DNA of 25,886 nucleotides, from contig NW_021836037.1 in NCBI RefSeq assembly GCF_006345805.1, forward strand, positions 1 through 25,886. The letters are read 5' to 3'. Positions 2,353 to 23,970 of the stretch are shown piece after piece. This DNA comes from Octopus sinensis. Lineage: Eukaryota. The notes under the pieces were generated by a model that did no database searches, had not been told where the DNA came from, and was given only the letters and a program-made list of their open reading frames with translations. The position numbers and the translations under genes are program-made. Position 1 is the stretch's first letter. Each line of letters begins with the position of its first letter.

Positions 2353-2574
2353 AAGGCGACGTGCTGGCAGATTCGTTACCGCACCAGACAAAGTGCTTAG
2401 CTGCATTTCGTCTGTTCTTACGTCCTGAGTTGAAATTCCGCCGAGATCGTCTTTGACTTTTTATCTTTTCAAAGATCGATAAATCAAGATGCAGCTGAGC
2501 AATGGGGGTTGATATTATCGACTTAACCTCCCCACCACAACCGCCTACGAAATTGCTGTCCTTGTGCCCAAAAC
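2353..2574 (+). mobile_element. Old, diverged relative of SINE family A with a different 3' tail
   Basis: Colinear with the head and body at 19916-20080 (GCTGGCAGA, GAGTTGAAATTCCGCCGAG, ATCGACTTAA), then ends in AAATTGCTGTCCTTGTGCCCAAAA instead of the Tx1-type tail. Confidence 0.75.
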
Positions 2575-2577
2575 TGC

Positions 2578-2679
2578 AAGGCAAAGTCGACCTCGGCGGA
2601 ATCTGAACTCAGAACGTAGCGGCAGACGAAATACCGCTAAGCATTTCGCCCGGCCCGCTAACCTTTCTGCCAGCTCGCC
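2578..2679 (-). mobile_element. SINE family A, 5' part with an intact, unoccupied target site
   Basis: Reverse complement GGCGAGCTGGCAGAAAGGTTAGCGGGCCGGGCGAAATGCTTAGCGGTATTTCGTCTGCCGCTACGTTCTGAGTTCAGATTCCGCCGAGGTCGACTTTGCCTT matches 19919-20020. Confidence 0.9.
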
Positions 2680-10648: not shown

Positions 10649-11189
10649 TATTTCTTTATTGCCCACAAGGGGCTAAACACGCAGGGGACAAACAAGGACA
10701 GACAAAGGGTTTAAATCGATTATATCGACGCCAGTAGGTAACTGGTAGTTATTTAATCGACCCCGAAAGGATGAAAGGTAAAGTCGACCTCGGCGGAATT
10801 TGAACTGAGAACATAGCGGCAGACGAAATACCTATTTCTTTACTACCCACAAGGGGTTAAATACAGAGGGGACAAACAAGGACAGACAACGGATTAAATC
10901 GATTAATCGACCCACAGTCGTAACTGGTACTTAATTTAATCGACTCCGAAAGGATGAAAGCAGTCGACCTCGGCGGAATTTGAACTCAGAACGTAGCGGC
11001 AGACGAATACCTATTTCTTTACTACCCAAAGGGCTAAACACAGAGGGAAAACAAAGGACAGACAAAGGATTAAGTCGATTACATCGACCCAGTGCGTAAC
11101 TGGTACTTAATTTATCGACCCCGAAAGGATGAAAGGCAAAGTCGACCTCGGCGGAATTTGAACTCAGAACGTAACGGCAGACGAATACC
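10649..11189 (-). repeat. Tandem array of three headless SINE-A units (~180 bp each); the head is displaced to 16493-16558 by the LINE
   Basis: Units 10649-10832, 10833-11011 and 11012-11189; each reads on the minus strand GGTATT(T)CGTCTGCCG..GTTCAAATTCCGCCGAGGTCGAC..TAAAGAAATA. Confidence 0.92.
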
Positions 11190-11438
11190 AATTTCTTTAT
11201 TGCCCACCGGGGGCCAAACATAGATATGGACAGTACAACTGATGGGATCAGTGAATCGATATGATTTTACATAAATGTGACATCAAAAATAAAATACAAT
11301 ACATAAAAATCGAATGGAATACACAGTACAAAAACAATACAAATGAAGCGATGATCAAGTTACGCTCCGATCCCACAAGCCCCGATCTACCGCTGATACC
11401 TTTTTATTTTTCCTTTTTTTTTTTTTTTCCTCGTCTAT

Positions 11439-14400
11439 TCACACGGTTCCTTGCACGCACAACACTCGTGCAACATACTTCCATCTCTTTTGGAACGTAC
11501 ACTCTGACAGACACCTCTTCTCCAGCCACAGTTTCCTTTTCAAATGAAAAGAAAAAAAGGATCGTAAATTGTCACCAGAGATAAAGTTGCCTGTCTTAAT
11601 TCCTTTTATCCTAGTATTCCATACAGCCTCTTTTGCTATTGCTACAACCGTGAGAAAACAATTCTTACCTTCGTTCGTTAGAACTCCCGGTGGGTCAATT
11701 TTTATAATTGACTCAGTCGACAGCCGTACTCTTCCTTCGCCGGACAACAGATGTTCAGCATAAGCCCACATTTCAGTTATCTCCGGACACTGAACAATAG
11801 CGTGAGGGACGGTTTCCTGTCCCCACCGCATCTTGGACAGGTCGGCGACTGACGTTTACCATGTCTTGCGAGCTTATCCCAAACGGGCAAGGCACCTCTG
11901 TAGCATTGCCAGGTTAAGGACTTTTGGAAGTTGTCCAACGTTCTCAACCCGAATGTACGATGAAACAAGCTGTCCAGTTGAATAAATCCGAGACCTAGAG
12001 TCGACCCCAGGCCATCGTCGCATTCAGACTCTACCACCCACTATATAAAATCCGTGTGGAACCCCCACCGCTGGCGTTGCCCGAGCGCCGGAACAGCAAG
12101 AGGGCCTTACGGCACTCTTTATGCCACTCACTCGACCTCGGTCTACGAGAACACCAGGCTTCCTGTTCGCAAAAACTCTTGAACTCAGGGAACATTTGTC
12201 TGGCCAGCGGAGACCACACCCGTTCACTATCCAGGAGAATCCAGAGGTGCCTCAACCTCAACGCATGTCTGCGCATCATTAACCAAGGCATCCCTAAACC
12301 TCCATTTAAAGGCTTTTGACAGCAGACAGAGCGTTTCACAAGTGGCGACCTGCCCTTCCACAAAAAGCGAAAGAGCTGTCTCTCCAACCTGATCAACCAC
12401 GAATCCGGACAGGGCACGACAGTCAGGCGGTAGGTAATGACCGATGCGATAAACACATTGGCCACTTCCGCCCTCCCTTTCAGGGATAGCCACCGCCAAG
12501 ACCAAGTCTTGACTACTGCAGCCACCCTGCTCAATACCTCCGTCCATTTCTTCTCTATCTGGAGGCCTGGTCCAAACCAGACTCCCAGCAACTTAACCGG
12601 TCCCTCCGTCCAGCGCCTAACAACACTGTCTGAAGGCATCGACTTGCCAACCCAGGTGCCGAGCTGCAAGCCGACCGACTTTTCCCGGTTAATCTTTGCT
12701 CCTGCTACCTCCTCGTAAGCCTCAATAGTCTTACCTACTTCACGTAGGCGTACCACTGTGGTTACACTGATAGTGATATCATCCGCGAAAGCCGTAACAA
12801 ACTCCTCTCTAGTCCTGGTTCTCTCGGGGATGCCACTCAACCTTTGCAGTAATGGCTCGAGAGCCATCACATACAAAAGTGGTGAAAGCGGACATCCTTG
12901 ACGAACCGAGCGTCTGATGCAGAACGGCTTCGAAAGGAAACCGTTCACCCGAACTATCGAGTCAATGTTGTGGTACAAAGCGATAAACCACCTGAGGAAG
13001 CCAAGGCCCAGGCCAAACCGCGCAAGTACAGTCGCTAGGTATCGATGGTCAACCCTATCAAAAGCTTTAGACTGGTCCAAATGCACCAATGCCCCACCTT
13101 TGCCAGATTTATTACCAAACCTCTCTATGGTATAGCGAATAAGATGGAGGGTATCCTGAATGGTTCTGCCTGGGATGGCACATGTCTGTGCCTCCCCGAC
13201 TATACCATTCGCGACACGCGCCAACCTTTTTGCTAGAACCTTGGCCAAAATCTTCACTTCTGCGTTTAACAGAGTGATGGGCCTGAAATTCTCTAGAACG
13301 TCCCCCTTGTCCGGGTCCTTTCTGACCAACGTCACTACTCCCCGGCGCACAGATCTGGGGATAAACCCATTCTGTTTCCAGTTCGCGTACACGTCAGTCA
13401 GTAGTTGCCCGAACAAGTCTGGCATACATTTATACAGCTCGTACGGAAGACCATCAAGTCCCGGTGACTTACCCGCTTTACAATCGGCCAAAGCCTCCAT
13501 CACCTCCTCAAGTGTGATTGGCCCTTCGCAAGACTCCGCATCCGACCCCGAGAGGCACGGCAGCCCGGTAAGAAAGTCCTCGAGGGCTCTCCCACCACCA
13601 GGACCGCCGTCACCCCCGAACAGCTGGGCGAAGTACTCCCGAAAGACCTCACACATTTTCTCGGGTTCGTTTATCAAGACACCATTTTGATTCGTCAAAG
13701 ACCGAATAGAGGAACTATTTCCTTGCCGAGCTTCCACCACTCGGGCCCATCCAGCGGCTTTGATTCCTTCACTTCCCATTGCACGTAACTTAGCTCTGGT
13801 AATACTTCCCATGTGGTGGGCTTCAAGATGCTGGTTTAACTCCAGTCTTTTCACCCTCGCTTGGTCTGTATTACCAGTCCTCCAGGCTTCTAGTTCCTTA
13901 ACTAGACCATCTCCTATTTTACGTCCCTTCTTAGCTAAACTTATGCTAAACCTAATAGACTCATATTTGATGGCTCTTTTTAGGGCGTACCACCATTTGT
14001 TATTAATGATGGTACCTGTTAATGCCCTCTGTATTAACATCTTGATCCGCTTTCTGTACTCCTCAATCGCCAAAAGGGACGTATTGAGTTTCCAGTAGCC
14101 AGATCCCTGTCTATGCAACTAGAAAAAACTGTGGACACTCAACTATGGACTTATCTTTTTCTCTAATTAAAATCCTATCTAGATATGTTCTGGTAGACCC
14201 GTCACTATTTGACCACGTCCACTGTGGAGTGTTCGGGTGCTCCAACCTATATGGATCTGCTAGCTGAAATTGACTTAGCAGATCCCGAAAGCCTGTGTTA
14301 CATTTTCTGTTCATGTTCGAGTTTGAGCCAACACCATCTGTGTGTGCTGCACATATTGTATTAGAGTCTCCTAACACTACTAGTGAATGCGACGTGGCTA

Positions 14401-14788
14401 GGAACTTTCCTAGGCCACGAAAATATTCAGTTTGCGGGCCAATAATGTTTGGTGCATAAATAGCGACCAGCCTGATTGTCTTGCCACAACTGAATGTCAA
14501 GTCGAGAACGACCAGCCTGCCTTCTGGGTCAGAAAAAACCAACTTTTTCTCGGCTACCCGGTTTCTTTTTAGTAGGACCAACACCCCACCCCCACCTCCC
14601 GCCCGACTCGGAGAAACGTATTTCTCGTAGCCGTTCAGGAGGGGGAGCAGATCTCTTGGCCCCTTCACCCGGGTTTCCGTTGCAACAATTACATCCAAAT
14701 TTCTCGACCTGATGTCATTCAGAAAGCGTCCTTGCTTCCAGCTTGACAACAGGCCATGAACATTTAAACAACCAATGTGAATAGCCAT
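11439..14788 (-). pseudogene. ORF2: APE endonuclease, reverse transcriptase and C-terminal CCHC (zf-RVT), broken into at least 4 frames
   Basis: EN: CLNVHGL, TET, AIYAPN, GDSN, YLDRIL. RT: KSPGLDGLPYE, FRPITLLN, LDQSKAFDRV, VRQGCPLSP, FADD, KLLGV. C-terminus: CPRC..ETVPHAIVQC. Breaks near 14115, 12035 and 11825. Confidence 0.93.
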
Positions 14789-14799
14789 CACTTACCTGT

Positions 14800-16356
14800 T
14801 TAATTAGGATTGTCCGGTGGAGGGGGACCCTCCACCTTTTTTTATCCAGGGTCGGAGGTGGACGGTCTTGGGAAATAGATTTGTCAAAATCCCGTCTCAC
14901 CACCGACACAGAATTATCAGGTGGAGGGGGAATCTCCACCTTTTCCTTTTCTCGCGGGATCGGAGCTGGTAATCCATGAAATATCGACTTGTTAAAATCT
15001 AATCTCAATGAAGATACAGTCTTTCTGTACTTATTTTGTAGAATTCTATAAGTCTTATTTGAGACTTCATATATGTCGTAATTGATAAATTCCTCTGAAA
15101 GGTTATCAATTTTTTTACAGTCTTTATGAGTTGAATGTCTCTCATGAGCTCAGTATCTTTAGTGTATACGGCTATTATGCCTTTTTCTTCTTTTTCTCTT
15201 CTGGCAGTCTTTTTTGGTCGTTGTTCTGTAGTAGTCGCCGCTCTCGGCTGGGTTGCTGGTTGTATTTTTCTTTTGTTTGTTGTTTTTTTCTCATCTGTTT
15301 CTTCTTTATCTTCTTCCTCTTTGTCTTTTTTCTCCTCTTCCTCTCTTCTTCATTTTCCTTGCAGTTCCTTCGAATGTGGCCTAATTGACCACATAAAAAA
15401 CATCGAGGTTTTCGGCCCTCAACAAACCACGAGGTTCTCCTCCCCTACCTCAATTGTCTCAGGAATTGTTTGAATTATTTTAGGGTCCGCTTGAATGAGA
15501 AGATTAATTGTTTTACCATCCCAGCGTGGGTTTTCCGTAGCGGTAGCCTGGAGGAGAGTAATTTTTTCTACCTCTTTGATTAGGACTGCCGCCAACACCA
15601 CATAGGTTCGACCTCTGGCGGGACCCTTGTAATTTTTATTCGCGACGTCCTCATCCCATATATAATAGGGTATTAACTCCACGTCGTTCGTTTTCAACGT
15701 TTCCACTGAGTTCTTGTGTGCTATTTCTTTATTGGTGAACCTTACTTCCACCGTTCCGAATTTTTTTCCTCTTCTCAGAAATACTACGTCTCGCCCAATA
15801 TTGGCTTTAAGCACTTTTCTATTTTCTCTTCTGACATTCTTTCAATTTTTCTATTTTGTAGACAATATGTTTTGAAAATTATTGTTTTTTGCTTTTCTTC
15901 TTCCTGTAATAACTTTTGCGGAGGTTCAATTTTCACACTGTTGTCATTTATTTCCATCATTTTGCTGTATTTCATAATTTCGCTTTTATTCGTCGACAGT
16001 ATCTGGGTTCCACCCCCAGCAGCCAACGCAAAACTTTTTTTTCCATTTTTTGGTTCTATCTGGATGCTAGGCACATCAATTATTCTCTTCGACACAATGC
16101 CTTTGTTCTCTGGCAAAGTCGGAAACTCTTCTGGTGAAAGTTCTGACGAGCTCTCAGACACATCTCCAAAAATATCAAATATATTATCCTCTCTGCTATT
16201 CCTTCTTGTAGCGGGGGAAACCCCTATTTCCTTGTCTGTAGTTGGCTCCTCGCCGGACATGTATTTCCTCCTCTCAACAGGAGAAACAAGTATTTCTGCT
16301 CCAACGGTAGGCTCCATGCTAGACGACATTCTTCCCCCCAAAGGGGGAATGAACAA
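14800..16356 (-). pseudogene. ORF1 (gag-like nucleic-acid-binding protein) with a zinc knuckle, frameshifted
   Basis: Pieces 15784-16356 and 15419-15814; then EGRKPRCFLCGQLGHIRRNC (CX2CX4HX4C, 15361-15402), a K/E-rich stretch and a Pro-rich end; lies directly upstream of ORF2. The start codon is uncertain. Confidence 0.8.
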
Positions 16357-16492
16357 CGCGTGCTACCACAAGCACTAAGTGTTTTCAATTGAAAACTCCA
16401 ACAGTTAAGTTATTCAACAGTTTAACAAGAAACAACAGTTGTTAACAATATTAACACCACGAAACAGCAATTCTTACTTCACGAACACATGT

Positions 16493-16558
16493 GCGGCAGA
16501 CGAAATACCGCTTAGCATTTCGCCCGGCGTGCTAACGTTTCTGCCAGCTCGCCGTCTT
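16493..16558 (-). mobile_element. SINE-A 5' head (A box) left upstream of the LINE insertion
   Basis: Reverse complement GGCGAGCTGGCAGAAACGTTAGCACGCCGGGCGAAATGCTAAGCGGTATTTCGTCTGCCGC, nearly identical to 19919-19979. Confidence 0.92.
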
Positions 16559-17550: not shown

Positions 17551-17867
17551 TCAGTAGTTTTATTTTAATAGCGTGCTTTCACTTCACTACCGAGCGCAGG
17601 TCTGTGTGCCTTAGGTATGTGATGTGATTTGTTGTGATGCTCTGATGGTTATTGTATGGAAAGTGTTCTGCGTAGGATGTGTGCAGTGCCTAGTAGTGCA
17701 ATTTTCTGTATGTTATATGTGTTTGTAAGTCCTGGTGTTTTTGTTATGTATTTGTCTGAATGTTTTTTTATCATGCCTAATGTACCTATTATGATAGGGA
17801 TTGTTTCTGCTTTTGGATTCCACATTCTGGTTACCTCTATTTCCAGGTCTTTGTATTTTGAAAGTTT
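17551..17867 (-). mobile_element. 5'-truncated R4/Dong-like (RLE-type) non-LTR element 3' end within (TAA)n
   Basis: Minus-strand translation LSKYKDLEIEVTRMWNPKAETIPIIIGTLGMIKK..IQKIALLGTAHILRRTLSIQ* (stop 17649-17651) is the R4/Dong-type C-terminus; flanked by TAA repeats, the known Dong target. Confidence 0.8.
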
Positions 17868-18186
17868 ATTATTATTATTAATGCCTAATGCACCTATTAT
17901 GATAGGGCTTGTTTCTGCTTTTAGATTCCACTTCCGGTTACCTCTATTTCCAGGTCTTTGTATTTTGAAAGTTTATTATTATTATTAATGCCTAATGCAC
18001 CTATTATGATAGGGCTTGTTTCTGCTTTTAGATTCCACTTCTGGTTACCTCTATTTCCAGGTCTTTGTATTTTGAAAGTTTATTATTATTATTAATGCCT
18101 AATGCACCTATTATGATAGGGCGTGTTTCTGCTTTTAGATTCCACATTCTGGTTACCTCTATTTTCAGGTCTTTGTATTTTGAAAG

Positions 18187-18188
<2 letters not shown>
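17773..18188. repeat. Four ~107-bp tandem units made of the Dong-like 5' junction plus (TAT)n
   Basis: Units start ATGCCTAATG at 17773, 17881, 17988 and 18095. Confidence 0.92.
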
Positions 18189-18230
<42 letters not shown>

Positions 18231-18875: not shown

Positions 18876-19915
18876 TCCGTATTCACTTATTGTAATTATT
18901 AAGAAGTATTTATTTCCTATGATGCATTATACGTCCGGATTGTGGATTTATTTTACTGGACGATAAATCTGTTAGGTCTTTGGGCGGGCATTGCTTTTCT
19001 GTGATGCTATAATGATTAAACTTATAACGTGATCAAATATCCGGGTTTGACTACATTGGCTTTAATTCATTCCATTATTTACTGTTTCTTTTTCAGTGCC
19101 TTTTGAACATGAAAATTTATATACAGCTGGGTGTATAGATATATATTCATATCTTTCACACATGATTTTGAGGACATTTATGGTTCACAGTGCTTTGGAT
19201 CTGCGTGGGGAGTGGGGTGGGGGCGAATGCTTGAGAGTTGCATGGATGCATATATGCTTGTATATGTGAATATACAGTTATATATGTATAGATATACATG
19301 TACATACATACATATATATTTGCATAAAGGGATAGGGGGTTTTTAAAGGAAACTTGACAGCCTGTTCCTTAGTCAATTCACACAAGGAGACAAAAACACT
19401 CGGATGCGGTAAAATACAGAAATGGGAAAAAAACTATATTCGTGGGAAAACTAACTGCACCCAGGCACTTTACCTATGACATACCTATTGATGTTATTCC
19501 CACACCGATACAAATTATGTGTTCATAATAAACACACCAAAGTACATACACACATTAGCCATACATACACAGTTACATATGTGTTTGTGAAAACATATGT
19601 ATATATGTATGTACTTATCTGTGTGTGTATTTATGTATGTATGTGGTTATGGATGTATGTATTAATGTATAGAAATATTTAAATACAAAAATACACTTGT
19701 AAGATATGTATTTTGATATTTCTCTACCGTTCAGAACATCGTTAAAACCACGTCCGCCATGTTGTTTAGTTTTATTGTGTTCTCTACACATTCTGTCTTT
19801 TACTGTGTCTTCTTGTCTTTGCGGTTGTTTTTCTTCCTACTGCTTCTTGGTGAGACTAAACTTCCCGTTTCAAGAATGCTAAGCGATATCAAATAAAGGG
19901 ATGAGGGTTTTTAAA

Positions 19916-20879
19916 GGAGGCGAGCTGGCAGAAACGTTAGCACGCCGGGCGAAATGCTTAGCGGTATTTCGTCTGCTGCTACGTTCTGAGTTCAAATTCC
20001 GCCGAGGTCGACTTTGCCTTTCATCCTTTCGGGGTCGATAATTAAGTACCATTTACGCACTGTGTCGAGTAATCGACTTAATACCTATGTCTGTCCTTGT
20101 TTGTCCCCTCTATGTTTACCCCTTGTGGATAATAAAGAATAGGTATTTCGGTCTGCTGCTACGGTTCTGATTTCAAATTCCCCGAGGTCGACTTTGCCTT
20201 TCATCCTTTCGGGGTCGATTAAATAAGTACCAGTTACGCACTGGGGTCGATGTAATCGACTTAATACCTATGTCTGTCCTTCTTTGTCCCCTCTATGTTT
20301 AGCCCCCTTGGGGTAATAAAGAAATAGGTATTTCGTCTGCTGCTACGTTCTTGAGTTCAAATTCCGCCGAGGTCGACTTTGCCTTTCATCCTTTCGGGGT
20401 CGATTAAATAAGTACCAGTTACGCACTGGAGTCGATATAATCGACTTAATCCGTTTGTCTGTCCTTGTTTGTCCCCTCTATGTTTAGCCCCTTGTGGGTA
20501 ATAAAGAAATAGGTATTTCGTCTGCTGCTACGTTCTGAGTTCAAATTCCGCTGAGGTCGACTTTGCCTTTCATCCTTTCGGGGTCGATTAAATAAGTACC
20601 AGTTACGCACTGGGGTCGATGTAATCGACTTAATACCTATGTCTGTCCTTGTTTGTCCCCTCTATGTTTAGCCCCTTGTGGGTAATAAAGAAATAGGTAT
20701 TTCGTCTGCTGCTACATTCTGAGTTCAAATTCTGCCGAGGTCGACTTTGCCTTTCATCCTTTCGGGGTCGATTAAATAAGTACCAGTTACGCACTGGGGT
20801 CGATATAATCGACTTAATCCGTTTGTCTGTCCTTGTTTGTACTCTCTGTGTTTAGCCCCTTGTGGGTAGTAAAGAAATA
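19916..20879 (+). mobile_element. SINE-A tandem array: one tRNA-like head plus five ~184-bp body/tail units, flanked by a 14-bp TSD
   Basis: Units start GGTATTTCG at 19963, 20142, 20327, 20512 and 20696; B box GAGTTCAAATTCC; TSD GATATCAAATAAAG at 19885-19898 and 20880-20893. Confidence 0.93.
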
Positions 20880-21047
20880 GATATCAAATAAAGCTATATA
20901 TTTCAGACTAACTGATTAGAGCTCGTTTTGGAAGGGACATGATTACATGATATTGAGAAATCGTATCATCTCAGAAATAGGCAGCTGAGATGCGAATTTG
21001 TTTCACTTCGTTATTAAGTATTTTGTGTCTTTAACACAATACGTCTA

Positions 21048-23536: not shown

Positions 23537-23970
23537 AATGCTCCTGCAAAGAGAAGCAACAGAAATACACTACATAGACAAAACAATGCTCCTGCAAAGA
23601 CATGCAACAGAAATACACTACATACACAACACAATGCTCCTGCAAAGAGAAGCAACAGAAATACACTACATAGACAAAACAATGCTCCTGCAAAGACATG
23701 CAACAGAAATACACTACATACACAACACAATGCTCCTGCAAAGACAAGCAACAGAAATACACTACATACACAACACAATGCTCCTGCAAAGACAAGCAAC
23801 AGAAATACACTACATACACAACACAATGCTCCTGCAAAGACAAGCAACAGAAATACACTACATACACAACACAATGCTCCTGCAAAGACAAGCAACAGAA
23901 ATACACTACATACACAACACAATGCTCCTGCAAAGAGAAGCAACAGAAATACACTACATATACAACACAA
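23537..23970. repeat. 48-bp minisatellite, 9 copies
   Basis: Unit AATGCTCCTGCAAAGA(G/C)A(A/T)GCAACAGAAATACACTACATA(C/G)ACAA(C/A)AC. Confidence 0.95.

Follow-up and report, generated by a model that had tools for sequence, protein, structure and literature searches.

An array of SINE units in the 25,886-nt stretch of Octopus sinensis DNA analysed here (the window) is inserted at a short core sequence, at the same base at which a putatively Tx1-like LINE in the window entered another copy of the SINE. With moderate confidence, and judging from sequence comparison, we interpret the array as a target site duplication (TSD)-flanked insertion of this family, SINE-A, at a Y|GRTAT core, made by target-primed reverse transcription in partnership with a Tx1-like element. 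The long resemblance between the flank of the array and the LINE site would then be fortuitous, and homology carried by the RNAs would give rise both to the strictness of the LINE and to the chains of SINE units.

The focal array and its flank

The array is bordered by exact copies of a 14-bp TSD (GATATCAAATAAAG; Table 1), confirming the claim of an earlier note on this DNA. Each of the five bodies (179–185 nt) begins with GGTAT and ends in the LINE-like tail AATAAAGAAATA or a close variant. Pairwise divergence of the bodies ranged from 1.9 to 9.4%. The non-SINE DNA to the left reads AATGCTAAGC|GATAT (19875–19889). It was identical at 14 of 15 positions to the host site of the LINE, AATGCTAAGC|GGTAT (16519–16505, minus strand), with the break at the same base, as had been reported. 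The sequence AATGCTAAGC is a rare variant, found at 1 of 30 LINE host sites and missing among the 12 commonest of 173 heads. Most heads (108/173) have AATGCTTAGC|GGTAT instead, which the flank matched at 13 of 15 positions; the score of 14/15 was obtained because the window's own LINE host, with its rare TAAGC variant, served as the comparison sequence.

Table 1. Features of the focal array and of the LINE insertion in the window
Feature	Position	Strand	Remarks
Single-copy flank AATGCTAAGC	19875..19884	+	8/9 to family majority at −10..−2, plus C at −1
Left TSD copy	19885..19898	+	Starts with core variant GATAT
17-nt spacer of unexplained origin	19899..19915	+	Between left TSD and head; present in runs X3 and X5 (to 19914)
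SINE-A head (47 nt) as far as internal target site	19916..19962	+	
Five SINE-A bodies	19963–20141, 20142–20326, 20327–20511, 20512–20695, 20696–20879	+	
Right TSD copy	20880..20893	+	
Full-length LINE, putatively Tx1-like	11190..16493	−	Broken ORF1; stops and frameshifts
LINE APE endonuclease	14791–14114	−	PF03372, E = 5 × 10−11
LINE RT	14118–12031	−	PF00078, E = 2 × 10−29
SINE-A head hosting the LINE	16510..16556	−	
Left 16-bp duplication at LINE 5' junction	16494..16509	−	
Right duplication and three SINE-A bodies downstream of LINE	10649..11189	−	

A decayed SINE-A head, raised in the earlier note as another possible source of the flank, was rejected: in-register matches (8/37 upstream, 9/50 downstream) were at the level of shuffled sequence, with 156 of 500 shuffles scoring as high. 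Outside the 15-mer, no SINE homology was found in the flank, and a genome search with 19700–19898 returned one match, the focal locus itself. The gap between left TSD and head was 17 nt at this locus versus at most 5 nt in 70 of 84 other loci, in a search that extended to 16 nt.

No empty allele was seen in the genome search, which gave the window copy only, or in runs X3–X6. Runs X3 and X5 read through from the left TSD into the spacer, the contig of run X4 ends at 19900, and run X6 yielded no left-flank contig. The right-junction records of X3, X5 and X6 contain only 17–21 SINE letters, under the bridging rule. Run X5 was nearly identical to the window and may be where it came from. Run X3 carries the insertion, has a right flank diverged by approximately 5%, and shows A in place of T at 19880, so that the flank match may have been one base lower when the insertion occurred.

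Across the genome, SINE-A is dispersed, with 80,976 exact tails and TSDs of variable length, and its 3' tail is common to SINE and LINE. Motifs resembling A and B boxes were recognized in the head by eye against the general consensus; ARAGORN and Rfam gave no matches there, and Rfam matches in the window were dismissed as microsatellite noise. Elsewhere in the window lie a truncated SINE-A (2575–2679, minus strand) and, in opposite orientation, an older relative (2360–2526, plus strand; 75% identical), as well as two other tandem arrays, 17773–18202 (107 bp × 4, 97%) and 23537–23970 (48 bp × 9, 96%). The segment 21047–21115 (plus strand) is, from a general resemblance, possibly the head of another, older tRNA-like SINE.

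The LINE and its insertion site

The second open reading frame of the LINE has an N-terminal APE endonuclease followed by a reverse transcriptase. The best solved matches of the endonuclease were L1-type endonucleases. The best named relative of the LINE was Xenopus Tx1 ORF2 (273 bits, 30% identity, 93% of the query), with human L1 ORF2 scoring lower (159 bits; two databases, same program). By score comparison and domain order, the LINE appears to be Tx1-like. Of its last 35 nt, 30 were identical to a SINE tail, and one SINE copy matched at 34/34. The family is young, with best copies 98–100% identical, and comprises 145 exact tails and 143 5'-end candidates in the genome. It inserts sequence-specifically and with a TSD.

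The LINE is strict in its choice of site. All of the best 30 LINE 3' ends were located at one base of SINE-A, all of the best 30 5' ends were at this site too, and both sets lay in differing SINE copies. Among the first 100 of the 145 tails, counted by eye, 95 were LINE-type (two of the five others were checked and were SINEs); 93 of these 95 were followed by a SINE body (≤2 mismatches) and the remaining two by GATAT and GGTAT. Twenty older copies were placed as follows: 14 at the SINE site, one joined to a SINE body via a short deletion, three in another repeat, one without a tail and one at a unique site. The last, a single case, is truncated, has a TSD and landed at T|GGTAT with 2/9 upstream matches. 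The repeat hosting the three older copies, all at one site, begins GGTATTGCGTC and has 12 of 13 bases in common with the SINE downstream of the break. Movement of LINE and SINE as one composite was rejected, since LINE copies 98–100% identical to one another are flanked by differing heads and bodies.

Full-length LINEs were found at 29 head sites and one tail|GGTAT junction, where junction use of approximately 32% was expected (p about 10−4). Upstream context therefore matters for the LINE, probably not via the endonuclease alone. Nor can the core by itself explain the strictness of the LINE, because YGRTAT occurs about 2 times per kb and SINE head sites about once per 33 kb. When the two copies of the duplication were compared in 15 LINE pairs, they agreed at 105 of 105 positions over +1 to +7 and differed at 18 of 135 over +8 to +16; two rare left-copy words each recurred at two loci and were absent from right copies. 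The restriction of left–right differences to +8 to +16 and the recurrence of rare words suggest that SINE sequence is carried at the 5' end of the LINE RNA.

Other Tx1-like families with a similar tail (45–55% amino-acid identity) were inserted in (CTAT)n, (TCCA)n or (TTA)n, C6:46.60–46.62 Mb being among the loci. The tail variant GGCAATAAA, identical to the tail of the window LINE, was followed by a GGTA-like site in 2 of 27 loci, versus 53 of 61 for the variant GGTAATAAA; the window LINE is thus no more than a candidate partner of the SINEs that land at GGTAT. Given the sister families with similar tails and a tail variant that tracks the target class, any pairing of a SINE subfamily with a partner LINE is provisional. 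A second self-insertion site near head position 15, where a tail is followed by AGAAACGTTAG-like sequence, was used mostly by copies with the GGCAATAAA tail.

The same observations bear on an unlikely alternative, in which the LINE protein recognizes a hairpin or inverted repeat, CGAAATGC-K-TAGC-S-GTATTTCG, and mobilization of the SINEs falls mainly to sister Tx1 families whose targets are looser or different. It agrees with the existence of several tail-sharing families and with the way the tail variant tracks the target class. An inverted repeat in the SINE head (window 19948–19973) is predicted to form a stem (z = −2.3) with the site at its apex, positions −5 and +1 covary (T.G in 130 and G.C in 28 of 173 heads), and the LINE used the G.C variant at 16 of 30 sites versus 28 of 125 available (p = 0.001). 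However, this covariation amounts to one subfamily event, and the G.C excess could stem from RNA-borne homology or subfamily age. Among the older LINE copies, 14 of 20 occupy the SINE site, almost always in its G variant, and the focal flank has no complementary arm, so that a hairpin would not explain the focal finding.

Landing sites of SINE-A

SINE loci were drawn from six 100-kb blocks, SINE-internal pattern matches and bystanders; two of the blocks and some further loci had been picked around known matches. TSDs were located from +6 onward only, and the pre-insertion site was taken from the left copy. Excluded before logos were made were 205 incomplete or tail-less heads, 53 motif-selected heads, 92 loci with no detectable TSD and 13 microsatellite sites, and the focal locus was kept out throughout. 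A TSD was detected in 95 of 187 complete loci (null 0.8%), 82 of them outside microsatellites.

The logo of these 82 sites was not flat, but its signal was confined to Y|GGTAT, where the break falls at the same base as in the LINE site. Positions −1 to +5 held 4.38 bits (7.0 bits in the core for 37 young sites) and −10 to −2 held 0.66 bits, of which approximately 0.23 is small-sample bias (approximately 0.026 per column). The core composition was G63 G68 T88 A85 T63 at +1 to +5, with a pyrimidine at 77% at −1. An earlier subset of sites gave the same picture; upstream match counts equalled the null, and of the three loci with the best upstream matches, two looked like old SINEs. The suggestion in the earlier note that recognition lies mostly upstream of the nick finds no support in these values. 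Of the endonuclease motif it had proposed, AATGCTWAGC|GRTAT, the break and a short core are supported, and the 15-bp extent is not. Nor does the LINE's commonest host site, AATGCGTAGC|CGTAT (15/30), fit this motif.

Genome-wide, 3,006 heads were preceded by H-N11-YGRTATV, a pattern whose leading H keeps the focal site out of the counts. TWAG at −5 to −2 occurred in 45 of them; after removal of 12 judged SINE-derived by eye, 33 were left versus 22–25 expected, or 1.3–1.5 times background (Poisson p 0.02–0.08, Fisher p 0.51). AATGC at −10 to −6 occurred at 16 sites (12 SINE-derived, two ambiguous, two unique), with approximately 2.7 expected. The exact proposed motif preceded a head 136 times, and among the 30 of these loci that were examined none was clearly outside SINE-derived DNA (one was ambiguous). 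The TWAG ratio, together with 0.12–0.18 bits apiece at −2, −3 and −6 in the 82-site logo, is compatible with a weak upstream effect on SINE landing.

It is accordingly improbable that the endonuclease reads approximately 15 bp, mostly upstream, and that the SINE chose the focal site for its long match. Three observations speak for such a reading: the low chance of at least 8/9 upstream matches at the focal locus (1.7 × 10−4 per locus), the preference of the LINE for heads over junctions, and use of the self site far above its share of YGRTAT sites. For the SINE, the nearly flat upstream logo largely refutes it, and upstream matches outside SINEs showed no clear genome-wide excess. The LINE, moreover, accepts TT/G and GT/C variants, and its copies outside SINEs match downstream of the break. 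The endonucleases of R1Bm, TRAS1 and Tx1L read approximately 8–10 bp around the nick (PMC1919474). At 1.7 × 10−4 per locus and approximately 81,000 exact SINE tails in the genome, a handful of chance mimics is expected, and the long upstream likeness of the focal flank to the LINE site is likely to be one of them. One site of this kind carries little evidential weight and should not be used to argue for an extended endonuclease motif.

SINE chains

The SINE-A/LINE system accounts for a large share of the SINE chains in this genome. Among the first 100 of the 80,976 tails, 36 were followed by a SINE body at the target base (counted by eye; one array contributes seven), and 67 of 240 units in the examined set were headless. 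Full-length SINEs were also found nested in older SINEs at the same base, with locus-specific TSDs, which demonstrates true self-insertion. Array units were often of different subfamilies, the first unit often belonging to another one. The first unit was less diverged than the last in 27 arrays versus 10 with the reverse (p = 7 × 10−5), and in 12 versus 5 unselected arrays (p = 0.013).

Sharing of variants was not confined to +1 to +16; adjacent units also had variants in common beyond the TSD zone (0.30 versus 0.16 in the null), and similarity was raised along the whole unit. Whole-chain copying or local duplication thus also acts, and insertion is not the sole source of arrays. That headless chains arose mainly by tandem duplication or unequal exchange is nevertheless hardly probable. 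Some adjacent units are only 0.6–1.8% apart and head-only tandem arrays exist, as such an origin would have it, but the mixture of subfamilies, the lower divergence of first units and the nested full-length insertions with TSDs at the same base argue against it. In the focal array, C>T at +15 was present in all five units, and units 2 and 4 were 1.9% apart, the rest 3.8–9.4%. The focal array fits a mix of insertion and duplication.

The head-only tandem arrays have periods of 65, 66 and 76 bp (C1:195358913-195359293, C7:15322780-15323090 and C4:103048073-103048281), and each of their units ends just beyond the target site. At one further SINE insertion, a SINE-head fragment lies between the left TSD and the element's own head, which suggests template switching.

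Proposed mechanism

In the interpretation that we prefer, the short core would set the break through endonuclease preference, probably aided by pairing of an RNA ending in GGUAU with the primer. Right TSD copies were nearer to GGTAT than left copies at 10 loci versus 2 (p = 0.04), a hint that SINE RNA ends carry GGUAU. RNAs with SINE sequence at their 5' end would complete integration best at sites offering a SINE to which the cDNA can anneal. Such annealing would confine the LINE to SINEs, and insertion of one SINE into another would produce head-(body)n chains, which may later be copied whole or duplicated locally. There are precedents for parts of this scheme: R2 makes seamless 5' junctions through cDNA annealing (PMC11331408), and co-transcription with the target can strengthen specificity (Kojima 2015, PMC4494074).

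A bolder version is offered tentatively. The APE-type LINE and its tail-sharing SINE might both be aimed largely by their own RNA ends: bases read through beyond the tail would pair with the primer, and a 5' leader derived from the SINE would anneal to the target. The target class of a subfamily would then be inherited from the landing place of its source copy, and the LINE would be a specialist parasite of the SINE that parasitizes it.

Comparison with known systems

Octopus tRNA-derived SINEs were reportedly described by Ohshima and Okada in 1994 under the names OK, OR1 and OR2. These probably come from the same host group as SINE-A, and SINE-A may already bear a name in that work or in Repbase. 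OR1 and OR2 are cited in PMC4824008 and PMC4758252, and SINE-A was not identified in the available parts of these two papers. In an octopus annotation, 13 L1-Tx1 families are given as recently active, and the word 'target' is absent from its main text as far as available (PMC13282606). Our search of open-access main texts returned no account of a cephalopod Tx1 family that targets its own partner SINE.

As in R2, RNA with upstream target sequence would lead to uniform 5' junctions, a relation deduced here and experimentally tested in R2 (PMC11331408). Unlike the window LINE, R2 carries an endonuclease of the restriction-like type and has only one target, in rDNA (PMC11331408). R1Bm likewise combines strict site specificity with an endonuclease consensus of only approximately 5 bases, other factors adding specificity, but differs in belonging to the R1 clade and in targeting rDNA (PMC1919474). 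How elements with an endonuclease of approximately 5 bases insert at one site is posed as an open question in PMC1919474. A single octopus genome, with approximately 145 LINE tails that are nearly identical and over 80,000 SINE tails, presents one base that is targeted both strictly and loosely, so that it becomes testable how much enzyme, DNA structure and RNA homology each contribute.

Xenopus Tx1L inserts in Tx1D (cited in PMC4494074 and PMC1919474). It resembles the window LINE in its APE endonuclease and RT and in having a mobile element as its target; this target, however, is a DNA transposon and not a tail-sharing SINE. Close parallels are found in crocodilians, where SINEU shares its target with the Tx1-clade LINE Tx1-Mar, some SINE families prefer the target far more weakly (13–23% versus 90%), tandem SINEs were ascribed to sequential insertion, and the TSD is approximately 16 bp (Kojima 2015, PMC4494074). 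A common target of a Tx1 LINE and a SINE, a weaker preference of the SINE and tandem insertion are already known (PMC4494074), and all of these, as well as the TSD of approximately 16 bp, recur in the octopus. In contrast to SINEU and Tx1-Mar, whose target is an unrelated Mariner, the SINE itself is the target here, it shares the 3' tail of the LINE, and its nested units are usually headless. The notable part is this strict aim of the partner LINE at the SINE itself.
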